Source: Burkholderiales bacterium
GTDB lineage: Bacteria > Pseudomonadota > Gammaproteobacteria > Burkholderiales > SG8-39
Direction: 5' to 3'
Assembly: GCA_050246035.1 (NCBI GenBank)
Contig: JBFWWT010000002.1
Coordinates: forward strand, 38,980-102,979
DNA length: 64,000 bases
The notes under the pieces were generated by a model, which searched no databases, was not told the origin of the DNA, and worked only from the letters and a program-made list of their open reading frames with translations. Shown here piece after piece: positions 10,136 through 64,000 of this stretch; position 1 is the first letter of the stretch; every line of letters begins with the position of its first letter. Made by a program: the position numbers and the translations under genes.

Positions 10136-10713
10136 CGGCCCCCGAGGCGCTGCACGCTCATGAGCGTGCGATCGCCGCTCGCGTAGCGGATCTCGATCAC
10201 GGAGACGTCGGCGCGGCGCCCGGCGATGCGCACGCTCTCGACGAGCGAAGCCATCCCGGCCTCGCGCGGCGTGAGCGTGAGCGCCCAGGAGGAGGCGGCG
10301 CCTTCCAGGTGCAGCCTGTAGGCCCGCTCGAGCCCCGCCTGGTCGCCCGCGAGCGTGCCGCGGATGCTCTGCACGAAAGCGGCCGCCTCGGGATAGCTGC
10401 GCAGATCGAGGCGCAGGCGCTCATCGCCGCGCTCCAGCGTCAGCGTATCGCCCTCCAGGCGCAGCAGCTCCGGCTTCGGGCGCAGCGTTCGCTTCTCGAG
10501 GCGATCGGGCGCCTCGTAGCGCAGCTCGCCCGAGCTGACGAGCGGCCGTTCGAGCACCTGCACGGTCTTCTTCTCCACGAAGCTCGCGCGTGACTCGCGC
10601 TGCGCGGCGAAGCCCGCGAGCAGCCGCTCGAGCGTCCAGGGCTCGGCGCCGAAGGCCGCGAGCGCCCAGGCAAGGGCCAGGGCGGCGCTAACGCGTCTCG
10701 TCCCAGAAATCAT
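10132..10713 (-). CDS. LolA-like outer-membrane lipoprotein-carrier family protein
   Basis: Start at MISGTRRVSAALALAWALAAFG (signal peptide). About 190 aa. ATGA overlap with the MMPL gene. Family assignment rests on sequence resemblance and context. Confidence 0.65.
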   Translation of the reverse strand: MISGTRRVSAALALAWALAAFGAEPWTLERLLAGFAAQRESRASFVEKKTVQVLERPLVSSGELRYEAPDRLEKRTLRPKPELLRLEGDTLTLERGDERLRLDLRSYPEAAAFVQSIRGTLAGDQAGLERAYRLHLEGAASSWALTLTPREAGMASLVESVRIAGRRADVSVIEIRYASGDRTLMSVQRLGGR

Positions 10714-11572
10714 AGAAGTTGAACCAGTTGTAGGGCGCGGCACGGCAGTGCCGCTCCAGGCAGGCGACATACGCCTCGAGCGCCGACTCGGGCGAGGCGC
10801 CCGGGGCCGAGAAATCGGCGAGCGGCTCGAAGTGCAGGGCGTAGCGATTGCCGCCGAGATGGAGCCCCGCCATGAACAGCACCCGGCAGCGAAGCATCGC
10901 CGCCATGCGAAAGGGCCCGAGCGGGAACCGGGCTGGCGCGCCGAGGAAGCGCACCGTGCGCACCTCCTCGTCCTCGCGCAGCGCGCGGTCGCCGAGCACG
11001 CCCGCGATGCCGCCCTGCGCAAGCAGGTCGCGCACGCGCAGCATCGAGTCCAGCCGTCCGAGCGCGATCACGTCCTGGCGCGCGGCCGGGCTGATCGCCT
11101 CGAGGGCCTCGTTCACCATGCGCGCATTCTCCTCGTACATCACCATCGCCACGCGCAGGCCGGTGGCGCGCCGGCCGGGGGCGCGCAGGGCCTCGAAGCT
11201 CCCGAGGTGCGCGCCCACGAGGAGCGCGCCCCGGCCGCGCGCAAGCTCGGCCTGCAGCGCAGGCGCGCCGTGCAGCTCGAGCGAGAAGAGATCGAAGCGC
11301 TCATTGAGCAGGTATACCCGGTCGAGCACGGTGGCGGCGAAGGTGTAGAAGTGCCGGTAGAGATCGGCGAGCCCCGGCTGTCGTTCGAGCGTGCGGGTGA
11401 GATAGGCGCGCGAAGCGCGCCGCGCCCGCGGCCCGAAGGCGAGGAAGTAGGCGGTTATCGGGTGCAGCACGAGGCGCGCGACCCGCCGGCCGAGGCCGAG
11501 CGCGATCGCGCGCATGAGCCGAAGCGCGAGCCGATGGCTGCGCTCGGGGGCGCGCCGCCATGGCGCGGTCAC
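10688..11572 (-). CDS. LpxL/HtrB-family (lipid A-type) acyltransferase
   Basis: GTG start at 11572 gives a GTGA overlap with the upstream stop. N-terminus VTAPWRRAPERSHRLALRLMRAIALGLGRR...YF...RASRAYL fits this family. An alternative ATG exists at 11515. Confidence 0.7.
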   Translation of the reverse strand: MTAPWRRAPERSHRLALRLMRAIALGLGRRVARLVLHPITAYFLAFGPRARRASRAYLTRTLERQPGLADLYRHFYTFAATVLDRVYLLNERFDLFSLELHGAPALQAELARGRGALLVGAHLGSFEALRAPGRRATGLRVAMVMYEENARMVNEALEAISPAARQDVIALGRLDSMLRVRDLLAQGGIAGVLGDRALREDEEVRTVRFLGAPARFPLGPFRMAAMLRCRVLFMAGLHLGGNRYALHFEPLADFSAPGASPESALEAYVACLERHCRAAPYNWFNFYDFWDETR

Positions 11573-11838
11573 GCCGGGCCGAGCATGGCGCTCGCCACCA
11601 CGCGTCCTGCAACGCGCAGCTCGAGCCGCGTCGCGCCGATGCGCTCGACCTCGACCTCGGCATCCGGCGGCACCGGGTGCAGGAACTTCGCCGAGGCGAT
11701 CACCGTGCCCGAGCGGCCGAGGCCGAGCGCCTCGAGCGCGGCGGCGAGCAGCAGCGCGCCCGGCACGAGCGGCATCCCGGGGAAATGACCGGCGAAGACC
11801 GGGTGGCCGGCGGGAAAGCGCAGGCGCGCCGCGCTCAT
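11569..11838 (-). CDS. Small FabZ/FabA-like hotdog dehydratase (89 aa)
   Basis: MSAARLRFPAGHPVFAGHFPGMPLVPG carries the HxxxxPxxPG dehydratase active-site motif. ATGA and GTGA overlaps with its neighbours. Confidence 0.65.
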   Translation of the reverse strand: MSAARLRFPAGHPVFAGHFPGMPLVPGALLLAAALEALGLGRSGTVIASAKFLHPVPPDAEVEVERIGATRLELRVAGRVVASAMLGPA

Positions 11839-13175
11839 GCGCCCCCCCGCACGCCGTGCGCGTGCGCGAGGGCCCGCAGCGCCTCGTGCGGCAGCTTGCC
11901 CGTGGACGCGCGCGGCAGCCGCTCCAGCAGCACGAGCGGACGCGGCAGAAAGGCCGGGTCGATGCGCTGGCGCAGCTCGGCGAGCAGCTGCTCGCGCGTG
12001 AGCCCCGGCGCGACCACGAAGGCGGCGAGCCGCGCGATGCCGCCCGCCGCACCGCCCTGCGGCGCGTAGAACACGCCGTCGGCCACGCCGGCGATCGAGC
12101 GCAGCTGGGCGTCGAGGTGCGCGAGCGACGAGCGCTTGCCCGCCACGTTCACCATGTCGGCGAGGCGCCCGCGCAGCAGGAAGCGCTCGCGCGAGAGCGG
12201 CTCCAGCACGTCGGCGAGCGCCGTCGGCTGCTCGATGTGGCCGCCGCTCGCCCAGGCGGCCTCGCCGCGGAGCTCCACGGCGATGCCGGGGAGCGTGCGC
12301 CACGCCGGGCCCTGCGCGGTGCGCCGGGTGGCCATCTGCCCGGTCTCGGTGCAGCCGTAGATCTCGAGGAGCGGCGCGCCGAAGCGCGCCTCGGCTTGCT
12401 CCGCGAGCGGCGCATCGAGCGGCGCCGTCGCGCACAGCAGCAGGTCCGCGGCGGGCGGCGCCGGCGCGTCCTCGAGCAGGGCGCGCAGGTGAAACGGCGT
12501 GGTCACGAGCACGCGGGGGCGCGGCAGGCGCGCGAGCGCTGCGCAGATGTCCGCCGGATAGAAAGGCCGCTCGGCGACGAGCGCGCCGCCGCCCTGCAGC
12601 GCCGCGAGCACCGTGGACTCGAAGCCGTACATGTGCTGCGGCGGGACGGTGCCGAGAATCGCCGCCCGCGCGGGCGCGAGGTCCCAGCGCTCGAGGGCGC
12701 CGCGCACGTTGCGCGCGAGCGTGCCCCAGTGCTTGGCGTTGGGCACCGGCCTGCCGGTGGAGCCCGAGGTGAACACGATCGCGCACAGGCGCTCGGCGTC
12801 GATCGGCGGCACATCGAAGGCCGCGGGCGGAGCGGCGAGATCGCCCGGCACCTCGGTGCGCGGCAGCTCGATGGACGCGGTGCGCTCGTCGGCGAGCAGG
12901 TAGACGTCGCCGGCCAGCTCGCGCAGCCGCCGCACCGTCTGCGCGGTGTGGTCCGGGGGCAGCATCGTCACCTGCCCGCGCAGCAGCGCAGCGGCGAGCC
13001 CGACCGCGAAGCGATAGCGGTCGGCGCAGGCGTTGAGCACGTGGCGCGCCTCCGGCAGGCGCGCGGCGAGCCGGCGCGCATCGGCGAGGAACTGCGCCGC
13101 GGAGAGCGCCTGGCCTGCGCGCCAGGCCAAGGGCGAGTCCGCCGAAACGCCGGCGATGAGCGGTACCGCCGCCAT
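11835..13175 (-). CDS. AMP-dependent synthetase/ligase (adenylating starter-activating enzyme)
   Basis: Start at MAAVPLIAG. Adenylation motifs FTSGSTGRPV, YGCTETG and STGKL are present. Confidence 0.85.
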   Translation of the reverse strand: MAAVPLIAGVSADSPLAWRAGQALSAAQFLADARRLAARLPEARHVLNACADRYRFAVGLAAALLRGQVTMLPPDHTAQTVRRLRELAGDVYLLADERTASIELPRTEVPGDLAAPPAAFDVPPIDAERLCAIVFTSGSTGRPVPNAKHWGTLARNVRGALERWDLAPARAAILGTVPPQHMYGFESTVLAALQGGGALVAERPFYPADICAALARLPRPRVLVTTPFHLRALLEDAPAPPAADLLLCATAPLDAPLAEQAEARFGAPLLEIYGCTETGQMATRRTAQGPAWRTLPGIAVELRGEAAWASGGHIEQPTALADVLEPLSRERFLLRGRLADMVNVAGKRSSLAHLDAQLRSIAGVADGVFYAPQGGAAGGIARLAAFVVAPGLTREQLLAELRQRIDPAFLPRPLVLLERLPRASTGKLPHEALRALAHAHGVRGGA

Positions 13176-32113: not shown

Positions 32114-33754
32114 ATGTCGCAGCCCAATCCCTTCGAGCGCGACCTCGACCGCAATCCCGCCAACTACGCGCCGCTCACGCCCATCCAGTTCCTCGAGCGC
32201 GCGGCCTACGTCTACCCGCAGCGACTCTCGGTGATCCACGGCGCGCGGCGCTTCACCTGGAAGGAGACCTACGCGCGCTGCCGGCGCCTCGCCTCGGCAT
32301 TGAGCCGGCGCGGCATCGGCAAGGGCGACACGGTGTCGGCGATGCTCGCCAACACCCCCGAGATGTACGAGTGCCACTTCGGCGTGCCGATGACGGGCGG
32401 CGTGCTGAACACGCTGAACACGCGGCTGGACGCCGACGCCATCGCGTTCATGCTGAACCACGGCGAAGCGAAGGTGCTGATCACCGACAAGGAGTTCTCG
32501 CCGACGATCGAGGCGGCCCTGAAGAAGATCGGACGCAGGATCACCGTGATCGACGCGGAGGACCCGGAGTACTCCGGCGGCAAGCGCCTGGGCGAGAAGG
32601 ACTACGAGGCGCTGCTCGCCGAGGGCGACCCCGAGTTCGAGTGGCGCTGGCCCGACGACGAATGGCAGGCGATCGCGCTCAACTACACCTCCGGCACGAC
32701 TGGCGACCCCAAGGGCGTCGTGTACAGCCACCGCGGCGCCTACATCAACGGTATCTGCAACATCGTCACCTGGGGCATGCCGCACCACGCGGTGTACCTG
32801 TGGACGCTGCCGATGTTCCACTGCAACGGCTGGTGCTTTCCCTGGACGATGGCGGCGAACGCGGGCACGAACGTGTGCCTGAGGAAGGTGGAAGCCGCGA
32901 AGATCTTCGAGCTGATCAAGTCGCACAGGGTGACGCACTACTGCGGCGCGCCGATCGTGCACTCGACGCTCATCAACGCGCCCGCGGCGATGAAGCAGGG
33001 CATCGCGCACAAGGTTTCCGGCATGGTCGCGGCCGCCGCGCCGCCCGCGGCGATGATCGAGGGCATGGAGAAGATGGGCTTCGACATCACGCACGTCTAC
33101 GGCCTGACCGAGGTCTACGGCCCGGCGACCGTGTGCGCGAAGCACGAGGAGTGGCAGGACCTCGACATCGCGGAGCGCACGCGCCTCAACGGCCGCCAGG
33201 GCGTGCGCTACCTGATGGAGGAGGGGCTGACGGTGATGGACCCCGAGACCATGCAGCCCGTGCCCGCCGACGGCGAGACGATGGGCGAGATCATGTTCCG
33301 CGGCAACATCACCATGAAGGGGTACCTGAAGAATCCGCAGGCCACGCAGAAGGCCTTCGCCGGCGGCTGGTTCCACTCGGGCGACCTCGCGGTGATGCAC
33401 CCCGACGGCTACGTGAAGATCAAGGACCGCTCGAAGGACATCATCATCTCGGGCGGCGAGAACATCTCCTCCATCGAGGTCGAGGACGTGCTCTACCGCC
33501 ACCCGGCGGTGCTGGCCGCCGCCGTGGTCGCCAAGCCCGACGAGAAGTGGGGCGAGACGCCGTGCGCCTTCGTCGAGCTCAAGCCCGACGCGCAGGTGAC
33601 CGAGATCGAGCTGATCGAGTTTTGCCGCGGCCAGATGGCGAAGTTCAAGGCGCCGCGCGCGGTGGTGTTCGGCGAGCTGCCGAAGACCTCTACCGGCAAG
33701 ATCCAGAAGTTCGTATTGCGCGAGAAGGCGAAGTCGGCCTCCGCCATCGAATGA
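32114..33754 (+). CDS. AMP-forming acyl-CoA synthetase (short/medium-chain type)
   Basis: 546 aa. Motifs YTSGTTGDPKGV, YGLTE, SGDLA and STGKIQK. Confidence 0.9.
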   Translation: MSQPNPFERDLDRNPANYAPLTPIQFLERAAYVYPQRLSVIHGARRFTWKETYARCRRLASALSRRGIGKGDTVSAMLANTPEMYECHFGVPMTGGVLNTLNTRLDADAIAFMLNHGEAKVLITDKEFSPTIEAALKKIGRRITVIDAEDPEYSGGKRLGEKDYEALLAEGDPEFEWRWPDDEWQAIALNYTSGTTGDPKGVVYSHRGAYINGICNIVTWGMPHHAVYLWTLPMFHCNGWCFPWTMAANAGTNVCLRKVEAAKIFELIKSHRVTHYCGAPIVHSTLINAPAAMKQGIAHKVSGMVAAAAPPAAMIEGMEKMGFDITHVYGLTEVYGPATVCAKHEEWQDLDIAERTRLNGRQGVRYLMEEGLTVMDPETMQPVPADGETMGEIMFRGNITMKGYLKNPQATQKAFAGGWFHSGDLAVMHPDGYVKIKDRSKDIIISGGENISSIEVEDVLYRHPAVLAAAVVAKPDEKWGETPCAFVELKPDAQVTEIELIEFCRGQMAKFKAPRAVVFGELPKTSTGKIQKFVLREKAKSASAIE

Positions 33755-52495: not shown

Positions 52496-54081
52496 GCGAG
52501 CAGCGCGTCGGCGAAGGCGTCGTCCGCCGGGGCGAGCGGATCGCGCGGCTCGAGCCGGTGCCGGCGCACGAGCCGCGCGAGCAGGGCGCGGCGCGGCAGC
52601 GTCCTGCCTTCACGCTCGAGGATCGCGGCGGCGCAGGCGTAGTAGAGGGCGGTGGCGGCCTGGCGCGCGTGGGCTTCGTCGGCCGAGCGCGCGAACTCCG
52701 CCGCCTTGCCGAGGTCGAGCTCGATCGCCTCGAGCGCCCTTTCCTTGCGGATGGCGCGCAGGACGTCCAGCGCGACGATGTTCGAGGTGCCCTCCCAGAT
52801 CGAGCCGAGGTGCGCATCGCGCAGCAGGCGGGCGTCGGACCACTCCTCGGTGTAGCCGACGCCGCCGCGCACCTCCATCGCGTCGCCGGTCACCCGGCGC
52901 GCGTCGCGACAGGCGCGGAACTTCAGGAGCGGCGTGAGCAGCCGCACGCGCCGGCGCGCCTCGTCGTCGCCCGCGTCGGCCTTGGCGAGCTCCACGGCGG
53001 TGTAGAGCATCACCGAGCGCGCGGCCTCCGCGGGCACCGCGAGCTTGAGGAGCTGCCGGCGCATGAGCGGGAACTCGACGAGCCGCTTGCCGAAGGCGAC
53101 GCGCCGGTGCGCTACGAACAGCGCTTCCGTCAACGCGCGCCGCATCATGCCGGCGGCGCGCATGCCGTTCGACAGTCGCGACATGTTGATCATGTCGGCC
53201 ATCTGCACGAAGCCGCGCTGCGGGTCGCCCACGAGATACGCGAGCGCGCCTTCCAGCCGGATCTCGCCGCTCGGCATGTCGCGCGTGCCCAGCTTGTCCT
53301 TCAGGCGAACGATGCGGTAGCTGTTCAGCGCACCGTCGGGCAGCACGCGCGGCAGCAGGAAGAGCGACAGCCCTTTCGTGCCCGCGGGCGCGTCGTCGGG
53401 GCGTGCGAGCACGAGGGCGAGCGCGGCGTCGGCGTTCGAGCAGAACCACTTGTCGCCGTAGAGCCGCCAGGCGCCGTCCTCCTGCACCGCGCGCGTGGCG
53501 GTCGCGCCGACGTCCGAGCCCGCGCCCTGCTCGGTCATGAACATCGCGCCTTGCGCGAGCGCGTCGAGGTCCTGCTCGGTCAGGCCCGGCAGGTAGCGCG
53601 CGACGAGCTCCGGGTCGCCGAACTTCCTGAGCGTTCTCGCGAGCGCGTCGGTCATCGAGAGCGGGCAGCAGACGCCGAACTCGGCCTGCACGTACAGGTA
53701 GGTGAGAGCGTACTTGGCGACCGCCGGCAGGGGCTCGGCCCAGCCGAGCACGCCGCCGCGATGCGACATCGCCGCGAGCCCGTACTCGGAGAACGCGACT
53801 TCCTCCAGGCGCCGGTAGGACGGATGCTTTTCGATCCACTGCCGGTCCTCTCCGGTGCGCGCGCGATGGTGCAGCGCCGGCGGGTTGCGGTCGGCGGTCG
53901 CGGCGAGCCGGTCGAGCTCGCCGCCGGCGAGCGCGCCGAGCCGCTCGAAGTGCGGCAGCAGGTGATCGAGCAGCGGCGCCTCCATGTACAGGCGCAGCAG
54001 GTCGGCGAAGTCCGGGTCCGCGAGGAACAGGTTCGTGCCGCGGCTGTCGGGCAGCGCGGCGGCGGCCATGGAAGCGTTCAT
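52492..54081 (-). CDS. AidB-like acyl-CoA dehydrogenase family protein
   Basis: Start at MNASMAAAALPDSRGTNLF (an alternative ATG at 54069 is possible). Long ACAD with an N-terminal extension (FMTEQGAGSD, GDKWFCSN), as in AidB-type enzymes. Confidence 0.85.
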   Translation of the reverse strand: MNASMAAAALPDSRGTNLFLADPDFADLLRLYMEAPLLDHLLPHFERLGALAGGELDRLAATADRNPPALHHRARTGEDRQWIEKHPSYRRLEEVAFSEYGLAAMSHRGGVLGWAEPLPAVAKYALTYLYVQAEFGVCCPLSMTDALARTLRKFGDPELVARYLPGLTEQDLDALAQGAMFMTEQGAGSDVGATATRAVQEDGAWRLYGDKWFCSNADAALALVLARPDDAPAGTKGLSLFLLPRVLPDGALNSYRIVRLKDKLGTRDMPSGEIRLEGALAYLVGDPQRGFVQMADMINMSRLSNGMRAAGMMRRALTEALFVAHRRVAFGKRLVEFPLMRRQLLKLAVPAEAARSVMLYTAVELAKADAGDDEARRRVRLLTPLLKFRACRDARRVTGDAMEVRGGVGYTEEWSDARLLRDAHLGSIWEGTSNIVALDVLRAIRKERALEAIELDLGKAAEFARSADEAHARQAATALYYACAAAILEREGRTLPRRALLARLVRRHRLEPRDPLAPADDAFADALLA

Positions 54082-54153
54082 GAGCACTGCCGGATATTGT
54101 CGCCTCTTTTGCCGGCCTTGACCCGGAGGGCGGGCCCTCGGCAAGATGCGCTC

Positions 54154-54417
54154 ATGCGCATCGCCGCCTGCTGTTTCGCAGCTCTTGCCACCACCGCCCT
54201 CGCGCCCGCCAAGGCAGCCGACGACGCGAAGCTCTTCGAGGCGCGCTGCGGGAAGTGCCACACCGTGGAGAAGCTCGCGCCGGGGCTCGCGAAGCGCGCG
54301 GCCGCGGCGCGCGAGCGCCACCTGGAGCGGTTCCTGCAGCGGCATTACGCGCCCGACGCGGCGGAGCGCAAGCGCCTCGCCGCCTGGCTGGGCGCGCAGG
54401 CCGACGCGAAGCGCTAG
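54154..54417 (+). CDS. Small secreted protein with a single CXXCH heme c-binding motif (87 aa)
   Basis: Signal peptide MRIAACCFAALATTALAPAKA, then FEARCGKCHT. Possible promoter upstream (TTGACC 54118-54123, about 18 nt, CAAGAT 54142-54147). It occupies the end of a longer spurious ORF (52558..54417). Confidence 0.55.
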   Translation: MRIAACCFAALATTALAPAKAADDAKLFEARCGKCHTVEKLAPGLAKRAAAARERHLERFLQRHYAPDAAERKRLAAWLGAQADAKR

Positions 54418-54421
54418 CGGC

Positions 54422-55738
54422 TCAGTCGTATTCGAAGCGCTCGAACACGATCTGCCGGGAAGGCATGCCCGCCTCGCGCAGGTGCCGCGCGCAGGCGAGC
54501 ATCATCGGCGTCGGCCCGCAGAGGAACGCGAGGCACCGGGCCGGATCGCCGCGGATCGCACCGCGCAGCGCCTCGGCGGTGAGCGCGCCCACGCTTCCCG
54601 CCCAGCCCGCGGAGGGCTCGTCCACGAAGAAGCTCGCGCGCAGGTCGAGCGCCGCCGCCATGGCGCGGATCTCGTCGGCGTGCACGAGCTGGCGCTCGTC
54701 GCGCGCGCCGTAGACCAGGCTCACGGGGCGCGGGTCGCGCCGCGCGTGGAGGTGGCGCAGCAGGCCCATCACCGGTGCGATGCCGATGCCGCCCGCGATG
54801 AGCGCGATGGTCTCGCCCTGCCGGCCGCGCAGGGAGAAGTTGCCGTGCGGCGCATCGAGATACGCGCGCGCCCCGGGGGCAAGTTCATCGAGCGCGCCGC
54901 TGAAATCGCCGCGCGCCTTGATGAGCAGGCGCACCTGCGGCGCGGACTCGGGCGCCGAGCTGAGGGAGAACGGGTGGTCGAGAAATGTGAGCGGCGGCTG
55001 CCCGAGGAGCACCCAGGCGAACTGGCCCGCGTCGTAGCGCAGTGCCCGGCCCGACGCCGGCTCGAGCACGATCTCGCGGATGCCGCGGCCGATCTCCTCG
55101 TTCGACACGACGCGGTGCGCGCCGCGCATCAGCACGAAGGGCTTGACCAGCCACAGGTAGGCCCAGAGGGCGAGCGCGAAGGCGGCGAGCGCCCACCAGT
55201 AGCGCGACAGCCAGGGCGCGCCGCTGTAGAACCCGGTCGCGAGCGCGTGGTGCGCGCCGCCGATGGCCACGAGCAGCGCGGCGAGCGAGTGGCTGGCGCG
55301 CCACCACTCGTATTTGAGACCGAGCCGATTGCGCAGCACCGCGAAGCCGACCAGCGCGAGCAGCAGCACCCAGGCGAGGACGCCCGAGAGCAGGTGCGGC
55401 GCGCTGAACAGGCGCGCGGCGCGCGCCGGCAGCTCGCGCCAGCCATCGGGATCGAGCGGCAGGAGAAAGAGCAGGGGGTGCAGCAGCACGAGCACCGTCA
55501 GCGCGCGCGCGGCGAGCTGGTGAAAGCGCATCGTGTGGTCGATGCCGGCGCGCCCCGAGAGCCACTCGTAGCGCCCGGACGAGATGAACTGCAGCAGGAG
55601 CATCGCGAGCGCGACGAGCCCGGTGGCCGCCGCGAGCTCGCGCACCAGACCGCTGCCGCTCAGGCCCTCCAGCGCGCCGATGACCAGCGGCAGGAGCGCG
55701 AGGATCGCGTAAGCCGCGATCAGGGCGGGAAGCGGCAT
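54422..55738 (-). CDS. Ferric-reductase-like transmembrane domain fused to an FAD/NAD(P)-binding oxidoreductase domain (bacterial NOX/FRE-like)
   Basis: 438 aa. Six TM helices with conserved His residues, an FAD motif HPFSLSS, NAD motifs GGIGIAPV and LCGP. Confidence 0.8.
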   Translation of the reverse strand: MPLPALIAAYAILALLPLVIGALEGLSGSGLVRELAAATGLVALAMLLLQFISSGRYEWLSGRAGIDHTMRFHQLAARALTVLVLLHPLLFLLPLDPDGWRELPARAARLFSAPHLLSGVLAWVLLLALVGFAVLRNRLGLKYEWWRASHSLAALLVAIGGAHHALATGFYSGAPWLSRYWWALAAFALALWAYLWLVKPFVLMRGAHRVVSNEEIGRGIREIVLEPASGRALRYDAGQFAWVLLGQPPLTFLDHPFSLSSAPESAPQVRLLIKARGDFSGALDELAPGARAYLDAPHGNFSLRGRQGETIALIAGGIGIAPVMGLLRHLHARRDPRPVSLVYGARDERQLVHADEIRAMAAALDLRASFFVDEPSAGWAGSVGALTAEALRGAIRGDPARCLAFLCGPTPMMLACARHLREAGMPSRQIVFERFEYD

Positions 55739-56518
55739 CTACTCCCGGAACGACGGATCGCGCCGGTCGAGCATCCTGAGCAGCGCGGGCCACTCGAGCT
55801 CGGTGATCTTGCGCCGCTTGCCCGGCGCGTAGCGCTCGTTGGTCACGCGGACGACGTCCGGCGACGGGTGGTTGAGCTCGGCGTTGCAGGCCATCGCCAT
55901 CACCTGCGCCTGGCAGGCGCGCTCCAGCCAATGCAGCACGACGAAGGCCTCGCACACGGTGCGACCGGCCGTGAGCAGGCCGTGGTTGCGCAGGATCATC
56001 GCGGCGGCCGAGCCGAGATCCTTCACCAGGCGCCGCTGCTCGTCGAGGTCGATCGCCGGGCCTTCGTAGTCGTGATAGGCGATCTCGCCGAAGAACATGG
56101 CGTTCTGCGTGAGCGGCAGCAGCCCGCACTTCAGGGCCGACACGGCCATGCCGGCGGGCGAGTGCGTGTGGATCACGCAGCCCACGTCCTCGCGGCCGCG
56201 GTGGATGGCGCTGTGGATGACGAAGCCCGCCTGGTTGATGCCGTAGCCGGTTCCCGAATCGAGCACCACGTTGCCGTCGAAGTCGATCTTGACGAGGCTC
56301 GAGGCGGTGACTTCCTCGTAGGCGTAGCCGTAGGCATTGATGAGGAAATGGCCTTCCTCGCCCGGCACGCGCGCGGTGGCGTGATTGTAGACGAGGTCGT
56401 TCATGCCGAAGTGCGCGATCAGGCGGTAGCAGGCGGCGAGATCGACGCGCGCCTGCCATTCCTCCGCGCTCACCTGGCTGCGCAGCGACGGGATGCTCAC
56501 GTGCGAGAGATCGGTCAT
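55739..56518 (-). CDS. Class II aldolase/adducin-domain protein
   Basis: Start at MTDLSHVSIPSL. Metal-binding His context CVIHTHSPAG. About 259 aa. The stop abuts the next start with no gap. Confidence 0.85.
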   Translation of the reverse strand: MTDLSHVSIPSLRSQVSAEEWQARVDLAACYRLIAHFGMNDLVYNHATARVPGEEGHFLINAYGYAYEEVTASSLVKIDFDGNVVLDSGTGYGINQAGFVIHSAIHRGREDVGCVIHTHSPAGMAVSALKCGLLPLTQNAMFFGEIAYHDYEGPAIDLDEQRRLVKDLGSAAAMILRNHGLLTAGRTVCEAFVVLHWLERACQAQVMAMACNAELNHPSPDVVRVTNERYAPGKRRKITELEWPALLRMLDRRDPSFRE

Positions 56519-57669
56519 AGCGTGTCCTTCGTTCCGAGTAGCGCGGTGATCTGGCTGGAAAGTACGCCTCCGTTGCCGTGCGCGAGGGCGACCGCGGCGT
56601 CCTTCACCTGGCGCGCCCCGCATTCGCCCCGCAATTGTCGCACCGCTTCGACGACGAGGAAGATGCCGTACATGCCCGGATGCACGCAGGAGAGCCCCCC
56701 GCCGTTCGTGTTCACGGGCAGGCCGCCGCCCGGCGCGATGCGCCCGCCGGCGACGAAGCCGCCGCCTTCGCCCTTCTCGCAGAAGCCGAGGTCCTCGAGA
56801 AAGAGCAGCGTGTTGATGGTGAAGGCGTCGTAGAGCTCCAGCACGTCCACGTCGGCGGGGCCGAGGCCGGCCATCTCGTAGGCGCGCCGGCCGGATTCGG
56901 TCGCCGCGGTCACGGTGAGGTCGGGCATCGAGGAGATCTGCCGGTGCCAGTGTGCTGCGCCCGCGCCGAGGAGGTAGACGGGCGCCTTGCGGAATTCCTG
57001 CGCGCGCTCGGCGCGCGTCAGCACGTAGGCGCCGCCGCCGTCGGTGACCAGGCAGCAGTCGCGCACGGTGAGGGGGTCGCTCACCATGCGCGAGCCGAGC
57101 ACCTCGTCCACCGTGAGCGGCTCGCGCGCGAAGGCCTCGGGGTTGAGGCTCGCCCACTGGCGCGCGGCCACCGCGATCGCCGCGAGCTGCTCGCGCTTCG
57201 TGCCGTACTGGTGCATGTGGCGCGCGGCGGCGAGCGCGTAGGAGGTGGGGGGATTGAACGGCTTGTAAGGATGCTCGAAAGGCTGCGGGTCGAGCGCCAT
57301 CTTGTAGCGGCCGGCCTCCGCCCGGCCCACGCCCGTCCTCTGGTTCGAGCCGTAGGCGACGAGCACCGTGTCGCACAAGCCCGCGTTCAGCGCGAGCGCG
57401 GCGGGAATCAGATGGCCCACGAAGGAGGAGCCGCCCACCATCGTGGACTCGGTGAACTTCGGCTGCAGCCCCAGGTGCTCGGCGAGCGCCAGCCCCGACA
57501 TGAAGATGTTGGTGCTGGCGACGACCACGCCGTCGACGTCGCGCAGGCTCAGGCCGGCATCGGCGAGCGCGTTCTTCGCCGCGGCCGCCGCGATCTCCAT
57601 CTCGCTCCAGCCCGGTGCCTCGCCGCAGCCGGCGAGCCCCACGCCCGCGATCGCGACCGAGCCCCTCAT
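56515..57669 (-). CDS. Thiolase-fold protein of the SCP-x/lipid-transfer type (DUF35 partner)
   Basis: Start at MRGSVAIAGVGLAG. C-terminus ...NTNGGGLSCVHPGMYG typical of this thiolase subgroup. ATGA overlaps on both sides. Confidence 0.85.
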   Translation of the reverse strand: MRGSVAIAGVGLAGCGEAPGWSEMEIAAAAAKNALADAGLSLRDVDGVVVASTNIFMSGLALAEHLGLQPKFTESTMVGGSSFVGHLIPAALALNAGLCDTVLVAYGSNQRTGVGRAEAGRYKMALDPQPFEHPYKPFNPPTSYALAAARHMHQYGTKREQLAAIAVAARQWASLNPEAFAREPLTVDEVLGSRMVSDPLTVRDCCLVTDGGGAYVLTRAERAQEFRKAPVYLLGAGAAHWHRQISSMPDLTVTAATESGRRAYEMAGLGPADVDVLELYDAFTINTLLFLEDLGFCEKGEGGGFVAGGRIAPGGGLPVNTNGGGLSCVHPGMYGIFLVVEAVRQLRGECGARQVKDAAVALAHGNGGVLSSQITALLGTKDTL

Positions 57670-58025
57670 GCGGGCACGAACTCCACGAGGCCGTCGGCGA
57701 TGCGGGCCTTCACCGACATGCCGATGTGTACCTCCGCGGGCGGGATGCCGACAACGCGGCTCATCATGCGCACGCCCTCGTCGAGGTCCACGAGGCAGAC
57801 GTTGTAGTCGCCGCCGTCGGCGGGCTTGCGGCGCACGACCGTAGTCGAGTACACCGCGCCGCGGCCGCTCGGCGCGACCCAGTCGAGGCGGTCCGCGCCG
57901 CAGTGGGGGCAGAGGACGCGCGGGTAGAAGACGTGCCTGGCGCAGGCAGCGCACTTCTGGATCTCGAAGCGCCCTTCCTTGAGCGCATCCAGATAGCGCT
58001 TCTCAGGCCCGCAGGGTGGCGACAT
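57666..58025 (-). CDS. DUF35 family Zn-ribbon/OB-fold protein
   Basis: 119 aa. Zn ribbon CAACARHVFYPRVLCPHCG followed by an OB-fold region. Confidence 0.8.
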   Translation of the reverse strand: MSPPCGPEKRYLDALKEGRFEIQKCAACARHVFYPRVLCPHCGADRLDWVAPSGRGAVYSTTVVRRKPADGGDYNVCLVDLDEGVRMMSRVVGIPPAEVHIGMSVKARIADGLVEFVPA

Positions 58026-58224
58026 GCTGTCCTTCGGCGACCTGCTCGCCTTCGGCGACGTGCAGCGATTCGAGCGTGCCGTCGGCGGGGGCGGGCACCG
58101 GGATTTCCATCTTCATGCACTCGACGAGGAGCAGCGTATCCTCGGCGGCCACGCGGCTGCCGGCCTGCGCCTCGATGCGCACCACCTTGCCCGCCACCTC
58201 GCAGCGCACGTGAAACGTCGGCAT
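58003..58224 (-). CDS. Free-standing biotinyl/lipoyl carrier domain protein (73 aa)
   Basis: Start at MPTFHVRCEVAGKV. Biotinylation-type motif ECMKMEIPV. Overlaps the DUF35 start by 23 nt. Confidence 0.75.
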   Translation of the reverse strand: MPTFHVRCEVAGKVVRIEAQAGSRVAAEDTLLLVECMKMEIPVPAPADGTLESLHVAEGEQVAEGQHVATLRA

Positions 58225-58276
58225 GCGCGGGCGATTATGGCAGGACAGGCGTGCAACAATCGAGCCCGAACTCGAA

Positions 58277-59164
58277 ATGATCTCCACACCCGTCCCGGCG
58301 GTGCGCGGCATGCTGTGGATGGCGGCCTCGGGGCTGCTGTTCATCTTCCTCAATACGATCATGAAGCGCCTGTCCCACGATCTCGACCCCTGGCTCGTGG
58401 GCTTCCTGCGCTACGCGCTCGGCGCCCTGGTCATGGTCGGGACGTCGCTGCCCGGCGGGCTCGCGGCGCTCTGGCCGAAGGCGCCCGGGCTGCAGCTCGT
58501 GCGCGGCCTTTTCCATACCGGGGGCATGATGCTGTGGTTCGCCGCGCTGCCCTTCGTCACGCTCGCCGAGCTGACCGCGATCGGCTTCTCCGGGCCGATC
58601 TTCATCTGCATCGGCGCGGTGCTGTTCCTCAGCGAGCGCATGACGGGCGCGCGCTGGACGGCCGTGCTGGTGGGATTCGCCGGCGTGCTGCTCGTGGTGA
58701 AGCCGGGACAGGCCGAGGGCTTTGCGGGAATCTCCCACGGCATGCTCCTCATGCTCGCCTCGGCGCCCGTGTTCGCGGGCTCGTACCTCGTCGCCAAGGC
58801 GCTCACGCGCTACGACCGCTCGGACGTCGTGGTGCTGTGGCAGCACGCGTGGGTGTCGATCCTGCTCGCGCCGTTCGCGCTCGCCTTCTGGAGCCCGCCG
58901 AGCGCCGTGCAGTGGGCGTTCCTCGTCGCCTGCGGCTTCCTCGGCGCGGGCGGTCACTACTGCATGGTGCGCGCGTTCCGCATCGCCGACATCTCGGCGA
59001 CGCAGTCCGTGAAGTTCCTCGAGCTGGTCTGGGCGGCGATCCTCGGCTGGATCGTCTTCGGCACGGCGCCGGCGGGGGCGACGGTGGCGGGCGGGATCGT
59101 GATCTTCGCTTCGACGCTGCTGCTCGCGCGGCACGAGTCGCGCTCGGCGGCGCGCGCCGCATGA
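58277..59164 (+). CDS. EamA/DMT-family transporter
   Basis: Start chosen at MISTPVPAVRGMLWMAASG. An upstream ATG at 58223 would overlap the divergent biotinyl-protein start. Ten hydrophobic helices. Confidence 0.8.
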   Translation: MISTPVPAVRGMLWMAASGLLFIFLNTIMKRLSHDLDPWLVGFLRYALGALVMVGTSLPGGLAALWPKAPGLQLVRGLFHTGGMMLWFAALPFVTLAELTAIGFSGPIFICIGAVLFLSERMTGARWTAVLVGFAGVLLVVKPGQAEGFAGISHGMLLMLASAPVFAGSYLVAKALTRYDRSDVVVLWQHAWVSILLAPFALAFWSPPSAVQWAFLVACGFLGAGGHYCMVRAFRIADISATQSVKFLELVWAAILGWIVFGTAPAGATVAGGIVIFASTLLLARHESRSAARAA

Positions 59165-60735
59165 ACGGGCTCGTCGCCTCGCCGCACCGCCTCGCCTCCG
59201 CCGCCGGCGCCGACGTGCTGCGCGCGGGCGGCTCGGCGGTGGATGCGGCGATCGCCACGAGCGCGGCGCTCTGCGTGCTCTATCCGCACATGACCAGCAT
59301 CGGCGGCGACGCTTTCTGGCTGATCCACGAGGGCGCGAGCGGCGCCGTGCGCTACCTCGGAGGCGGCGGGCAGGCGGCCGCGAGCGCAACGCCGGAGTGG
59401 TTCCGTGCGCGCGGCCATGCCGAGATTCCGCTGAAAGGGATCCTGCCCGCGACGCTCACGGTTCCCGGGGCGGTGGCGAGCTGGGCGGAGGCGCATGCGC
59501 GCTACGGCCGCCTGCCGCTCGCGCGCTGCCTCGAGCAGGCGATCGGCTACGCGCGCGAGGGCGCGCCGGTCAGCGCGCGCGTCGCGCGTTTCATCGAGGG
59601 CGCGAAAGCCGAGCTGGCCGACTGCCCCGAGGCCGCGGCGATCTTCCTGCAGGGCGGGGCCACGCTCGTCAACCCGGGGCTCGCGCGGTCGCTGGAGCGC
59701 ATCGCGCAGGACGGCCGCGCCGGCTTCTACCAAGGCGAGACGGCGAGGGCGTTGACGCGCTACGCCGAGGCGAACGGCGGCTTTTTTCGCATGGACGACC
59801 TGGCGGCGCAGCGCGCGCAATGGGGCGAGCCGCTCGTCGGCACCTATCGCGGCGTGACGATCTACCAGACGCCGCCGCCGACCCAGGGTTTCACCGTGCT
59901 GCAGATGCTCAACCTCGTGGAGCCGTTCGAGCTGCACCGACTGCCGCTGCTCGGTCCGGATCGCGCGCACCTGCTGGTGCAGGCGAAGCAGATCGCCTAC
60001 CACGACCGCGACCGCTATCTCGCCGACCCGCGCTTCGCCGAGGTGCCGGTCGAGCGACTGATCTCCAAGGCCTATGCCGACGAGCGGCGCAAGCTGATCG
60101 ATCCGCAACGCGCGCTCGCGTGGGACGAGGTGCCTTCGTACGGCTCCCTGGCGGGCGACACCGTGTACGTCTCGGCGATCGACGGGGACGGCAATGCCGC
60201 GTCGCTGATCCAGAGCCTGTACGGGGTCTTCGGCTCGGGCGTGGTCGCGGGCGAGACGGGCATCCTGCTGCAGAACCGCGGCGCCTACTTCAACCTCGAC
60301 CCCGCACATCCGAATGTGCTGCAGCCGGGCAAGATCCCGCTGCACACGCTGATCGCCTCGTTGGGAAAGCGCGACGGCAGGCTCTGGAGCGTCTTCGGCT
60401 GCATGGGCGCCGACGGCCAGCCGCAGATCCACCTGCAGGCCTACACCGCGATGATCGACCACGGGCTCGACATCCGGCAGGCGGTGGAGATGCCGCGCTT
60501 CCTCTCGGGCCGCTTCGCGCTCGGCGAGGCGCGCGACACGCTGCACATCGAAGCGCGCTTCCCGCGCGCCACGATCGACGAGCTCGAGCGTCGCGGGCAT
60601 CTCCTTGACCGCTGGGGCGACTGGAACGAGTTCGCCGGGCACGCCCACGGCATCGTCGTCGATCCGAAGACCGGCGAGCCGGCGGGCGGCGCCGACCCGC
60701 GCAGCGACGGCGCGGCTATGATCCCGCCGGCATGA
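59161..60735 (+). CDS. Gamma-glutamyltransferase family protein (no signal peptide)
   Basis: Start at MNGLVASPHRLASAAGADVL (ATGA overlap). Autoprocessing and nucleophile context GDTVYVSAID. About 524 aa. Confidence 0.9.
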   Translation: MNGLVASPHRLASAAGADVLRAGGSAVDAAIATSAALCVLYPHMTSIGGDAFWLIHEGASGAVRYLGGGGQAAASATPEWFRARGHAEIPLKGILPATLTVPGAVASWAEAHARYGRLPLARCLEQAIGYAREGAPVSARVARFIEGAKAELADCPEAAAIFLQGGATLVNPGLARSLERIAQDGRAGFYQGETARALTRYAEANGGFFRMDDLAAQRAQWGEPLVGTYRGVTIYQTPPPTQGFTVLQMLNLVEPFELHRLPLLGPDRAHLLVQAKQIAYHDRDRYLADPRFAEVPVERLISKAYADERRKLIDPQRALAWDEVPSYGSLAGDTVYVSAIDGDGNAASLIQSLYGVFGSGVVAGETGILLQNRGAYFNLDPAHPNVLQPGKIPLHTLIASLGKRDGRLWSVFGCMGADGQPQIHLQAYTAMIDHGLDIRQAVEMPRFLSGRFALGEARDTLHIEARFPRATIDELERRGHLLDRWGDWNEFAGHAHGIVVDPKTGEPAGGADPRSDGAAMIPPA

Positions 60736-62279
60736 GCTGGGAAAAGGAGCTGGAGGAGCTCGCGCGGCGCAAGGCGCTCGCCGCGCAGATGGGCGGCGCG
60801 GAGAAGGTCGCGCGCCACAAGGCTCAAGGGCGGCTTACGGTGCGCGAGCGCATCGACGCTTTGGTGGACGCGGGGAGCTTCCACGAGATCGGCAGCATCG
60901 CCGGCAAGGCGAGCTACGACGCCGAAGGGAACATCTCGGGATTCGTTCCCGCCAACCTCGTCATGGGCCGCGCGAGGATCGACGGTCGGCCGGTGGCGGT
61001 GGCGGGCGACGACTTCACGGTGCGCGGCGGCGCGGCCGACGCCGCGATCCGCGGCAAGCTGGTCACCGTCGAGCGCATGGCGCAGGACCTGCGCATCCCG
61101 CTCGTGCGCCTGGTGGATGGCACGGGCGGCGGCGGCTCGGTGAAGTCGATCGAGATCGAGGGCAGGACGCTCCTGCCGAGCATCCCCATGTGGCAGCTGT
61201 GCGTCGACAACCTGTCGCAGGTGCCTGTAGTGGCGCTCGCGCTCGGCTCGGTCGCGGGGCTAGGGGCGGCGCGCGTCGCCGCGAGCCACTACTCCGTGAT
61301 CGTGAAGGACACCGCGCAGATGTTCGTCGCCGGCCCGCCGGTGGTGGCGCGCGTGGGCGAGGTCCTCGACAAGAACGAGCTCGGCGGGAGCGAGATCCAC
61401 ACGAAGAACGGCGCCATAGACGACGAGGCCGCGAGCGAGCAGGAAGCCTTCGCAATGGCGAAGCGTTTCCTGTCCTATCTCCCCGGCTCGGTGCACGAGC
61501 TGCCCGCGCGCACCGAGCCGAAGGACGACCCCAGGCGGCGCGACGAGTGGCTGCTGGGCGCGATCCCGCGCGATTCGCGCAAGGTCTACAAGATGCGGCC
61601 GATCGTCGAGGCGCTCATGGATCAGGGCAGCTTCTTCGAGATCGGCCGGCGCTGGGGCAAGCCGGTGATCACGGGGCTCGCGCGACTGGACGGCTGGCCG
61701 GTCGCGGTGATGGCGAGCGACCCATACCACTACGGCGGCGCGTGGACCGCGGACGCCTGCGACAAGGTGATCCGCCTGGTCGACCTTGCCCAAACCTTCC
61801 ACTTGCCGGTCGTGCATCTCGTGGACGTGCCTGGATTTCTCATCGGCAAGGAAGCCGAGGAGGCGGGCACGATCCGCCACGGGGCGCGCGCCATGCAGGC
61901 CATCTACCAGTGCACGGTGCCGTGGTGCGCGATCCTGGTGCGCAAGGTCTACGGCGTGGCGGGCGCGGCGCACATGAACCCGGCGCGCTATTGCATGCGC
62001 TACGCCTGGCCTTCGGGCGACTGGGGGTCGCTGCCCATCGCGGGCGGGCTGGAAGCGGCCTACAAGGCCGAGCTCGAGGCCGCGCCGGACCCGAAGGCGA
62101 AGCTCGCCGAGATCGAGGCGCGGCTGGAAAAGCTCCGCTCGCCCTTCCGCAGCGCGGAGTCCTACATCGTGGAGGAGATCATCGACCCGCGCGACACGCG
62201 CGCCCTCCTCACCGAGTTCGCGAATCTCGCCGCGCCGCTGCGCACGCCGGGGCCGCCAAGCTTCGGCTACCGGCCATGA
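60732..62279 (+). CDS. Acyl-CoA carboxylase carboxyltransferase subunit (PccB/MmdA-like)
   Basis: 515 aa. N- and C-terminal crotonase-like halves (DDFTVRGGA, FHLPVVHLVDVPGFLIG, EEIIDPRDTR). Its last 444 nt include repeat copy 1. Confidence 0.9.
   Translation: MSWEKELEELARRKALAAQMGGAEKVARHKAQGRLTVRERIDALVDAGSFHEIGSIAGKASYDAEGNISGFVPANLVMGRARIDGRPVAVAGDDFTVRGGAADAAIRGKLVTVERMAQDLRIPLVRLVDGTGGGGSVKSIEIEGRTLLPSIPMWQLCVDNLSQVPVVALALGSVAGLGAARVAASHYSVIVKDTAQMFVAGPPVVARVGEVLDKNELGGSEIHTKNGAIDDEAASEQEAFAMAKRFLSYLPGSVHELPARTEPKDDPRRRDEWLLGAIPRDSRKVYKMRPIVEALMDQGSFFEIGRRWGKPVITGLARLDGWPVAVMASDPYHYGGAWTADACDKVIRLVDLAQTFHLPVVHLVDVPGFLIGKEAEEAGTIRHGARAMQAIYQCTVPWCAILVRKVYGVAGAAHMNPARYCMRYAWPSGDWGSLPIAGGLEAAYKAELEAAPDPKAKLAEIEARLEKLRSPFRSAESYIVEEIIDPRDTRALLTEFANLAAPLRTPGPPSFGYRP
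61836..62255 (+). repeat. Direct repeat copy 1 (420 bp, identical to 63581-64000)
   Basis: Base-by-base comparison of TTTCTCATCGGCAAGGAAGCCGAGG...CGCACGCCGGGGCCG with 63581-64000 found no mismatch. The flanks to the left of each copy are unrelated. Confidence 0.95.
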
Positions 62280-64000
62280 CGCTACGTGCGGCGCTCCAAC
62301 CGCGTTCGATCGCCGTGATCGGCGCTTCCGACAACCCGCACAAGGTGGGCGGCCGGCCGATCCTGTACATGAAGCGCTACGGCTATCGCGGCGCGATCTA
62401 CCCGATCAATCCCGGCCGAGCGGAGGTGCAGGGGCTGAAAGCGTACAAGGCGATCGCTGAGACGCCGGAAGCACCCGACCTCGCGATCATCGCCGTGGCC
62501 GGAGACGAGGCGGTGCGCGCGGTTGACGAATGCGCGGCGCGGGGCGTGCAGGTGGCCGTGGTGATGACTTCGGGCTTCGGCGAGCTGGGCGAGGAGGGCA
62601 GGCGCGCGCAGGCGCGCATGGCCGCCTCGGCGAAAGCCGCCGGCATGCGCCTGGTCGGGCCGAATTGCCAGGGGCTCGCGAACTTTGCCACCGGCGCGGT
62701 GGCGAACTTCTCCACCGTGTTCCACGAGATCGAGGCGCGCGACGGGCCCGTGGCCATCGTGAGCCAGAGCGGCGCCTGCTCGCAGGCGATCTACATCCTC
62801 GCGCGCCAGCGCGGCCTGGACGTGCGCCACGTGCACGCCACCGGCAACGAGGCCGACGTCACGGTGGCCGATCTCGCCGAGGAAATCGTGCAGGAAGAAG
62901 GCGTGCAGCTCGTGCTCCTTTACATGGAGGCGATCCAGCGGCCCGAGGCGCTCGCGCGCGCGGCCGCGATCGCGCGCGAGCGCGAGCTGCCCATCGTCGC
63001 GGTGAAGGCCGGGCGCACGGCGAGCGGCGTGCGCGCGGCTTCCTCGCACACGGGCGCGCTCGCGAGCGAGGACCGCGTGATCGACGCGTTCTTCGAGCAG
63101 CACGCCATCTGGCGCGCGGCCGATCCGCAGGAGCTCGTCGCCGCGGGGCAGCTCTACCTGCAGGGCGGACGGCCGAGAGGGCGGCGCTTCGTCGCCGTGA
63201 GCAACTCGGGCGCGAGCTGCGTGATGGCGGCCGACGCCGCAGAGGAGATGGGCCTCGAGTTGCCCCAGTTCGACGAGGCGACGCAGGCCAAGCTGCGGCA
63301 GGTGCTCCCCGCTTTCGCGACGCCTTCGAACCCGCTCGACGTCACCGGCGCACTGTTGAATGACAGCAGCCTGATCGGCGGCTCGCTCGAGGCGCTGGGC
63401 GCGGCCGATGCCTGCGACCTGCTCATGCTCGCGATCCCCATCGCGGGCGCGGGCTACGACGTGCCGCGCTTCGCGCGCGACGCGGCGGCGTATCGCGAGC
63501 GCCATGGCAAGGCGCTCGCCGTAGCGGCTCCGCAGCCCGAGGTGCGCGAGACGTTCGAGAAGCGCGGGTTGCCCGCCTTTTTTCTCATCGGCAAGGAAGC
63601 CGAGGAGGCGGGCACGATCCGCCACGGGGCGCGCGCCATGCAGGCCATCTACCAGTGCACGGTGCCGTGGTGCGCGATCCTGGTGCGCAAGGTCTACGGC
63701 GTGGCGGGCGCGGCGCACATGAACCCGGCGCGCTATTGCATGCGCTACGCCTGGCCTTCGGGCGACTGGGGGTCGCTGCCCATCGCGGGCGGGCTGGAAG
63801 CGGCCTACAAGGCCGAGCTCGAGGCCGCGCCGGACCCGAAGGCGAAGCTCGCCGAGATCGAGGCGCGGCTGGAAAAGCTCCGCTCGCCCTTCCGCAGCGC
63901 GGAGTCCTACATCGTGGAGGAGATCATCGACCCGCGCGACACGCGCGCCCTCCTCACCGAGTTCGCGAATCTCGCCGCGCCGCTGCGCACGCCGGGGCCG
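62276..64000 (+). CDS. Acetate-CoA ligase (ADP-forming)/CoA-binding family protein, N-terminal ~435 aa, fused in frame to a duplicated carboxyltransferase C-terminus. Open at the window end.
   Basis: ATGA overlap with the upstream stop. MTLRAALQPRSIAVIGASDNPHKVGG...VGPNCQG (CoA-binding and ligase-CoA domains). No stop through 64000. At 63581 the translation switches to FLIGKEAEEAGTIRHGARAMQ..., the same as carboxyltransferase residues. Confidence 0.7.
   Translation, partial: MTLRAALQPRSIAVIGASDNPHKVGGRPILYMKRYGYRGAIYPINPGRAEVQGLKAYKAIAETPEAPDLAIIAVAGDEAVRAVDECAARGVQVAVVMTSGFGELGEEGRRAQARMAASAKAAGMRLVGPNCQGLANFATGAVANFSTVFHEIEARDGPVAIVSQSGACSQAIYILARQRGLDVRHVHATGNEADVTVADLAEEIVQEEGVQLVLLYMEAIQRPEALARAAAIARERELPIVAVKAGRTASGVRAASSHTGALASEDRVIDAFFEQHAIWRAADPQELVAAGQLYLQGGRPRGRRFVAVSNSGASCVMAADAAEEMGLELPQFDEATQAKLRQVLPAFATPSNPLDVTGALLNDSSLIGGSLEALGAADACDLLMLAIPIAGAGYDVPRFARDAAAYRERHGKALAVAAPQPEVRETFEKRGLPAFFLIGKEAEEAGTIRHGARAMQAIYQCTVPWCAILVRKVYGVAGAAHMNPARYCMRYAWPSGDWGSLPIAGGLEAAYKAELEAAPDPKAKLAEIEARLEKLRSPFRSAESYIVEEIIDPRDTRALLTEFANLAAPLRTPGP
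63581..64000 (+). repeat. Direct repeat copy 2 (420 bp, truncated by the window end)
   Basis: Identical to 61836-62255, at an offset of 1745 bp. It is in frame with the ORF that starts at 62276. Confidence 0.95.

Follow-up and report, generated by a model that had tools for sequence, protein, structure and literature searches.

The locus considered here raises the question of whether an open reading frame (ORF) in which the beginning of an acyl-CoA ligase is joined to the end of a carboxyltransferase reflects an event in the chromosome or the way in which the reads were assembled. This ORF lies at the right-hand end of a 64,000-nucleotide stretch of DNA (hereafter the window) from an uncultured Burkholderiales bacterium (assembly GCA_050246035.1, contig JBFWWT010000002.1, positions 38,980 to 102,979 of the forward strand), to which all the coordinates given below refer unless another sequence is named. 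The assembled sequence points to a probable recent head-to-tail duplication of a chromosomal segment of 1,745 bp; the junction between the two copies is very likely to be present in real DNA. The duplicated unit would start at codon 369 of a carboxyltransferase gene and end at codon 435 of the following gene, which encodes an ADP-forming (NDP-forming) acyl-CoA ligase. Both parental genes would be spared, since the two copies stand in tandem: the upstream carboxyltransferase and the downstream ligase would remain complete, and a new ORF of 582 amino acids would arise at the join.

The repeat and the chimeric ORF in the window

Positions 61836-62255 and 63581-64000 are equal at 420 of 420 bases, as stated in the original prediction, and a perfect match of this length cannot be due to chance. 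The left edge of the repeat is abrupt, which had also been claimed: with A at base 61835 and T at base 63580, the match can be carried no further leftward. A repeat finder applied to the 64-kb window recovered the pair at a spacing of 1745 and detected no further long perfect repeat. Copy 1 of the unit (61836..63580, plus strand) runs from codon 369 (TTT) of the carboxyltransferase gene to codon 435 (TTT) of the ligase gene. Copy 2 (63581..64000, plus strand) is cut by the end of the window, while the repeat itself continues in the second assembly described below and ends at the equivalent of position 65325. The new junction (63578..63583, plus strand) reads ...GCCCGCCTTT|TTTCTCATCGG..., and since the flanking bases differ at both ends, the boundaries of the unit are unambiguous.

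The chimeric ORF (62276..64000, plus strand) combines residues 1-435 of the ligase with residues 369-515 of the carboxyltransferase, in frame. Its ATG overlaps the stop codon of the carboxyltransferase gene (ATGA), and its stop codon corresponds to positions 64022-64024, giving the full length of 582 amino acids. The translation across the join is ...ETFEKRGLPAF|FLIGKEAEEAGTIRHGA..., which reads FLIGKEAEE after the join.

The complete repeat in a second assembly

The sequence beyond the end of the window is provided by L026 (assembly GCA_050248415.1, contig JBFWSK010000003.1, positions 65240-87324, reversed), which was reached via its ligase P0122 and is 100% identical to the window over positions 54021-64000. 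Two direct copies of the unit abut in L026, at 7816-9560 and 9561-11305: they are contiguous, with no spacer, and are identical at 1745 of 1745 bases, in the tandem head-to-tail arrangement. After copy 2, the sequence continues with GCGCGCGAGCG... into an intact ligase of the ADP-forming acyl-CoA type, with 694 amino acids and an ATP-grasp domain. The original prediction, according to which positions 64001-65325 should repeat 62256-63580 and then lead into an intact ligase gene, thus agrees with L026 on both counts; the head-to-tail duplication that it proposed is supported, and the size of the unit, given there as "at least" 1745 bp, is exactly 1745 bp.

The carboxyltransferase (6712-8259), the chimera (8256-10004), and the intact ligase (10001-12085) were all called as genes in L026, and all three are joined by ATGA stop/start overlaps. 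Genes for DctP, DctQ, DctM, the beta and alpha subunits of the electron transfer flavoprotein (ETF), and an acyl-CoA dehydrogenase are located downstream of the ligase gene. No other tandem arrays of note were found in L026.

Occurrence of the chimera

The protein expected from a tandem duplication, namely the ORF in the window followed by PPSFGYRP (582 amino acids), served as the query of an exact look-up. The exact 582-residue chimera is present twice at NCBI (MGE3160807.1 and MGE3570021.1), under the name 'CoA-binding protein' in both cases. These proteins belong to two Burkholderiales metagenome-assembled genomes (MAGs). MAG 1 (contig of 170,349 bp) carries the carboxyltransferase MGE3160806.1 and the intact ligase MGE3160808.1, and MAG 2 (contig of 180,324 bp), the source of L026 and P0122, carries the carboxyltransferase MGE3570022.1 and the intact ligase MGE3570020.1; in both MAGs, the accession number of the chimera falls between those of the two parental proteins. 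Residues 426 and 671 of the intact ligase are not the same in MAG 1 and MAG 2, nor are the sizes of the contigs, so that these are separate assemblies. A one-off mis-join is unlikely because the chimera is found, unchanged and flanked by the same pair of genes, in two deposited MAGs, the read sets of which are possibly shared, rather than in a single assembly. The choice between a duplication and an artefact, which the original prediction had left open, is therefore partly settled: the presence of the chimera in a second deposited MAG favors a real junction.

In a protein search, the chimeric ORF matched P0001, a 694-amino-acid ligase at NCBI, with 100% identity over the first 76% of the query. 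No carboxyltransferase domain was found in any of the 120 best protein matches to the chimera. The exact 40-base junction and a degenerate pattern of the peptide PAFFLIGKEA were both absent from the JGI metagenome contigs, a search of low power. The 120 best matches and the JGI metagenome pattern both lack the signs of a conserved multidomain fusion, and an old or conserved fusion was rejected, the relatives having single-copy loci and no fusion.

When the chimera was sought by exact match among called genes, nothing was returned. Unitig-shaped partial proteins ending at the boundaries of the unit, which would be signatures of graph breaks, were also sought in the protein collection, where none of nine candidates was present, but this result is uninformative since the endpoints were guessed. 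The chimera is filed in a 90% cluster (containing P0139) which has a carboxyltransferase fragment of 125 amino acids as its representative, and searches restricted to representatives therefore cannot show it. A search with a junction-spanning peptide of 94 amino acids yielded carboxyltransferase fragments only, which is a weak negative since the chimera is hidden under this representative. P0159, which covers 82% of the junction peptide, was considered as a junction protein and discarded, as its N-terminus is unrelated. No paper was found in the literature under the assembly or run accessions.

The single-copy allele

Four Logan contigs cover parts of the same locus in other runs: L001 (SRR27911160), L002 (SRR36072188), L025 (SRR36072185), and L028 (SRR27751816). 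The exact carboxyltransferase protein is encoded on independent Logan contigs, and on L001 it is followed directly by a 694-amino-acid ligase with an ATP-grasp domain. L001 and L025 track the window to exactly position 63580 and then run into the ligase gene, and L002 is collinear with the window until its own end at 62966. L025 is single-copy and unbroken over both boundaries of the unit, and encodes exactly the intact ligase of MAG 1. L028, which is 100% identical to the window, crosses the left boundary unbroken and ends 70 nt into the unit. Once one unit has been removed from L026, it aligns without gaps with the three independent contigs L001, L002, and L025, at 99.6-99.8% identity: the duplicated form contains a single new junction and its outer flanks are collinear with the single-copy allele.

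The ligase is also encoded at 22 species-representative loci, from Betaproteobacteria/Burkholderiales MAGs (63-89% identity) plus one Chloroflexia outlier. Wherever both genes are covered, there is one carboxyltransferase and one ligase, which is the form expected of an ancestral single-copy locus in relatives. The single-copy arrangement, the search for which had been suggested in the original prediction, was thus found both in near-identical strains and in related species. The fusion is restricted to this strain lineage. Three observations point to a very young event that is still polymorphic within the population: there are 0 differences in 1,745 bp between the copies, single-copy alleles are present in strains showing 99.6-99.8% identity, and the fusion is absent elsewhere.

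Only one in-unit difference marks the duplication haplotype near the join. Base 63551 (9531 and 11276 in L026), located 30 nt upstream of the junction, is A in the window, where it specifies Thr426, and G in L001 and L025, where it specifies Ala426. In both MAGs, the junction comes with the A allele, and the G allele is present in the intact ligase of MAG 1, so that MAG 1 has Thr426 in the chimera and Ala426 in the intact ligase. This difference could be a linked single-nucleotide polymorphism of the strain, a mutation that occurred during the event, or an effect of the assembly graph. The distance of 30 nt from base 63551 to the junction is equal to k-1 of a k=31 graph. When the window or L026 was compared with L001 over 5.5 kb, eight of the ten differences were found inside the 1745-bp unit and none in the 2.4 kb upstream. 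Three of those in L001 occur in the carboxyltransferase part and are all silent; the differences in L002 and L025 are more evenly spread.

Contigs of several other Burkholderiales MAGs (74-89% identity) break off in the ligase gene, at most about 20 codons away from codon 435: L020 ends at about residue 426, L021 at the second base of codon 435, one base short of the equivalent of the breakpoint, and L022 at about residue 447. The partial proteins P0024, P0046, and P0080 likewise end near this codon. A hypervariable linker in the ligase (residues ~457-480), just downstream of the breakpoint, may break short-read assemblies; there may also be recurrent structural variation near codon 435.

Anatomy of the junction

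With longer flanks, the junction reads ...GGGTTGCCCGCCTTT|TTTCTCATCGG... and includes a run of six T, three on each side. The wild-type right boundary is ...GGGTTGCCCGCCTTT|GCGCGCGAG... (in short, for the single-copy form, ...GCCCGCCTTT|GCGCGCGAG...) and the left boundary is ...GACGTGCCTGGA|TTTCTCATCGG... (in short, ...GTGCCTGGA|TTTCTCATCG...). The base preceding the unit is A, as against T for the last base of the unit, and the first base of the unit is T, as against G for the base following it. Since the boundary bases differ on both sides, no microhomology was consumed and the join is blunt. A microhomology-mediated origin was rejected on these grounds, as the junction retains both TTT triplets. 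The 12-mers at the two breakpoints, GTGCCTGGATTT and TTGCCCGCCTTT, which encode VPGF and LPAF, match at 8 of 12 positions; a match of this kind occurs in 1.2% of random pairs from the window (P about 0.012 per fixed register), and the likeness is probably coincidental.

The fusion is in frame because both breaks fall on codon boundaries, and a join is in frame by chance in one case out of three. Shifting the join by one or two bases gives ORFs of 481 or 649 codons, in which the native stop/start overlap is lost.

The parental enzymes and the chimera

The upstream parental gene (60732..62279, plus strand) encodes an intact acyl-CoA carboxylase beta subunit/carboxyltransferase of 515 amino acids (Pfam Carboxyl_trans, E=3.8e-87), which is identical to MGE3160806.1/MGE3570022.1; the final 444 bp of the gene fall within copy 1. 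The closest solved structures are those of the methylmalonyl-CoA decarboxylase alpha and propionyl-CoA carboxylase beta subunits. The intact ligase (P0122) has the CoA_binding (residues 10-134), Succ_CoA_lig (157-293), and ATP-grasp_5 (475-684) domains in a single chain, in line with membership of the NDP-forming acyl-CoA synthetases (ACD), together with a weak Ligase_CoA_2 match starting at residue 306. It aligns over its full length with 8wzu, a 4-hydroxybutyrate-CoA ligase [ADP-forming] (E=2.6e-86), and its other solved relatives include 9y43 and the dimethylsulfoniopropionate (DMSP) lyase DddX (7cm9). Archaeal free-standing alpha subunits also match the ligase: 2csu (457 amino acids) aligns with residues 7-451, the separate alpha subunit 4xyl_A has 464 amino acids, and the beta subunit 4xyl_B aligns with residues 475-682 only.

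In the chimera, CoA_binding and Succ_CoA_lig were identified at residues 9-293, and positions 341-477 of the 493 in the Carboxyl_trans profile were matched at residues 436-566. Both the translation and the Pfam results agree with the earlier description of the ORF starting at 62276 as CoA-binding/ligase-CoA domains joined to the C-terminal part of the carboxyltransferase. The chimera has no ATP-grasp domain and thus falls outside the ACD enzymes; nor does it belong to PF01039, where both N- and C-terminal domains are needed, since the match is confined to positions 341-477 of 493. The C-terminal domain of the carboxyltransferase extends over residues ~277-494 (PDB fragment 8zv5_B), and the tail of the chimera begins in the middle of this domain, at residue 369, within the conserved motif VDVPGF|LIG...GTIRHGA, leaving about two thirds of the domain. 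The ligase part amounts to an alpha-like module lacking its last ~16-30 residues as well as the entire nucleotide-binding half. The chimera is not a functional member of either enzyme family, the defining domains having been tested and found to be absent. It is predicted to have neither enzymatic activity and would probably fold poorly; with the ATP-grasp domain missing and one carboxyltransferase domain present only in part, it is probably inert, and judging from its domain content, it is most likely a non-functional by-product.

Surrounding genes and other features

An ORF encoding a gamma-glutamyltranspeptidase (59161-60735, plus strand) precedes the carboxyltransferase gene. The duplication lies within a conserved catabolic cluster (window ~54000-64000, L026 1-22085). 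The minus strand of this cluster carries genes for an AidB-like acyl-CoA dehydrogenase, a ferric-reductase/NAD-binding protein, a class II aldolase, an SCP-x-type thiolase, a DUF35 (ChsH2-like) protein, and a 73-amino-acid biotinyl-domain protein. On the plus strand are those for an EamA transporter, the gamma-glutamyltranspeptidase, the carboxyltransferase, the ADP-forming ligase, the DctPQM TRAP transporter, ETF beta and alpha, and an acyl-CoA dehydrogenase. Among the genes listed for the cluster, none for a biotin carboxylase adjoins the carboxyltransferase gene.

Two ORFs on the minus strand do not correspond to genes. One of them (61260..61973) starts within the repeat and has on its sense strand the carboxyltransferase, with its strong Pfam match; the other (62282..63718) starts within copy 2, opposite the ligase-derived frame. 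Their starts are 1745 bp apart and their first ~46 residues are common to both, which bears out the earlier view that these identical starts come from the repeat: both are by-products of the repeat in a sequence with 72% G+C. Elsewhere in the window, two 46-nt direct repeats (32979-33087; 74% identity, 63 bp apart) are probably internal to a coding sequence, and no RNA genes were found with Rfam.

Origin and persistence of the probable duplication

A join-point that is blunt, or nearly so, is a sign of illegitimate joining of sister chromosomes without the help of RecA. The blunt join observed here would accordingly point to an illegitimate, RecA-independent process, for example end joining or a template switch from one sister chromosome to the other, and unequal homologous exchange would be less favored as its origin. 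The order of translation, from the carboxyltransferase through the chimera to the ligase, would be the same as in the wild-type operon, judging from the ATGA overlaps retained. The in-frame join, by keeping the coupling to the intact ligase and TRAP transporter genes, may explain why this particular junction is tolerated. A perfect direct repeat of 1.7 kb is a good substrate for RecA-dependent loss, and a duplication of this kind persists only if it is neutral in the short term, hitchhiking, or selected; the present one would be expected to be lost via recombination between its copies.

Several observations weigh against the duplication as an explanation. No complete gene is duplicated, and there is therefore no obvious dosage benefit that might hold an unstable duplication at high frequency. 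The identity between the copies is perfect, as happens when an assembler walks one graph edge twice, and since a 1.7-kb repeat exceeds the usual short-read insert, the assembler may simply have guessed the copy number that it gives. In addition, Logan contigs from other runs cross both boundaries of the unit unbroken, and the evidence from MAG 1 consists of protein identity and accession order. The junction may instead be real but misstated by the assembly, being present in only a sub-population, or else in more than two copies, with a graph loop walked once. We consider this unlikely. In its favor, one graph edge used twice would yield the 1745/1745 identity, near-identical single-copy contigs exist in other runs (including L025, with exactly the ligase of MAG 1 and no break at either boundary), and the Thr426 chimera and Ala426 ligase of MAG 1 fit a mixture of duplication-bearing and single-copy strains. 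In L026, however, the base equivalent to 63551 is A at the wild-type right boundary too, so that one genome with both boundaries suffices, and no measurement favors more than two copies.

If the junction were purely an artefact, produced by chimeric reads or a mis-join in a genome that is in fact single-copy, the perfect identity of the copies would be explained, as would the single-copy state of every other contig or relative covering both genes, the failure to find the junction in the JGI metagenome contigs, either as a 40-mer or as a degenerate peptide pattern, and the lack of junction-shaped fragments in the protein collection. This explanation is nevertheless improbable: the identical 582-residue chimera occurs with the same two neighboring genes in two MAGs with differing ligases, whereas random chimeric reads do not recur at an identical base and assemblers drop junctions seen in single reads. 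Nor would the Thr426/Ala426 difference in MAG 1 be expected if the assembler had merely repeated one stretch, and the absence of any other long repeat from the 64-kb window indicates that the assembly is not generally prone to duplications. The negative searches, for their part, are weak, as the collections either lack this population or hide the fragments under cluster representatives. It is also conceivable, but highly improbable, that the duplication has been kept in the population because the chimera acts as a selected, functional new gene, for example as an alpha-subunit-like CoA-binding module altering the activity or assembly of the neighboring ligase or carboxylase. The join is in frame and on codon boundaries, translational coupling is retained on both sides, residues 1-435 of the ligase make up nearly the whole of an archaeal free-standing alpha subunit (2csu, 4xyl_A), and the fusion is present in two MAGs. 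Against this, one such join in three is expected to be in frame, the copies have not diverged, the fusion is conserved in no relative, the carboxyltransferase piece starts in mid-domain (369 within ~277-494) and is unlikely to fold alone, and the alpha-like part is ~16-30 residues short at its end. If the chimera did prove to be functional, it would provide a snapshot of the birth of a new gene via partial-gene tandem duplication within a bacterial operon.

Comparison with known systems

When compared with the NDP-forming acyl-CoA synthetases (8wzu, 7cm9, 4xyl), the intact ligase has the full set of domains, whereas the chimera keeps CoA_binding, Succ_CoA_lig, and a truncated Ligase_CoA_2, without ATP-grasp. 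It looks like an alpha subunit that has been cut short and given a foreign tail, and is predicted to be unable by itself to activate an acid with ATP. Among the PF01039 carboxyltransferases (1x0u, 6ybq, 1on3), the upstream gene product is a full-length member, whereas the tail of the chimera is identical to residues 369-515 of this protein, without the N-terminal domain or the initial third of the C-terminal one. The label 'CoA-binding protein' hides this chimeric nature, and the protein should not be used to seed protein families or domain-architecture catalogs. The main value of the present analysis is one of annotation housekeeping, and no new biological question is opened by it.

The locus adds one more case to a well-known type of event, namely tandem duplication with a join-point gene fusion. 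It is a clean case, found in nature, of a partial-gene tandem duplication that is very young and blunt-ended, of which both the duplicated and the single-copy alleles are present in public data, and as a natural, datable structural polymorphism, it could be used to measure the frequency and lifetime of such variants in environmental populations. Spontaneous tandem chromosomal duplications with join-point gene fusions were reportedly described in Salmonella and E. coli in classical work by Anderson and Roth, with later reviews from the group of Roth, Andersson and colleagues. As in the enteric duplications, the copies here are adjacent and direct, a single join-point links the 5' portion of one gene with the 3' portion of a second one, and the parental genes are intact; the enteric duplications are unstable because of recombination between the copies and polymorphic within populations, and the same would hold for the Burkholderiales unit. 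Unlike them, the present case comes from an environmental MAG and not from laboratory selection, and the unit is only 1.7 kb long, contains no complete gene, which excludes a benefit from gene dosage, and shows neither microhomology nor a repeated element at its junction.

In the population genomics of eukaryotes, surveys in Drosophila are said to have revealed chimeric genes arising from tandem duplication. There, as here, the tandem duplication of parts of genes gives rise to an in-frame chimera of neighboring genes, and most such chimeras are young and polymorphic. The Burkholderiales genes differ from those in Drosophila in that they belong to one operon with overlapping stop and start codons, and for this reason the chimera would automatically be transcribed and translationally coupled.

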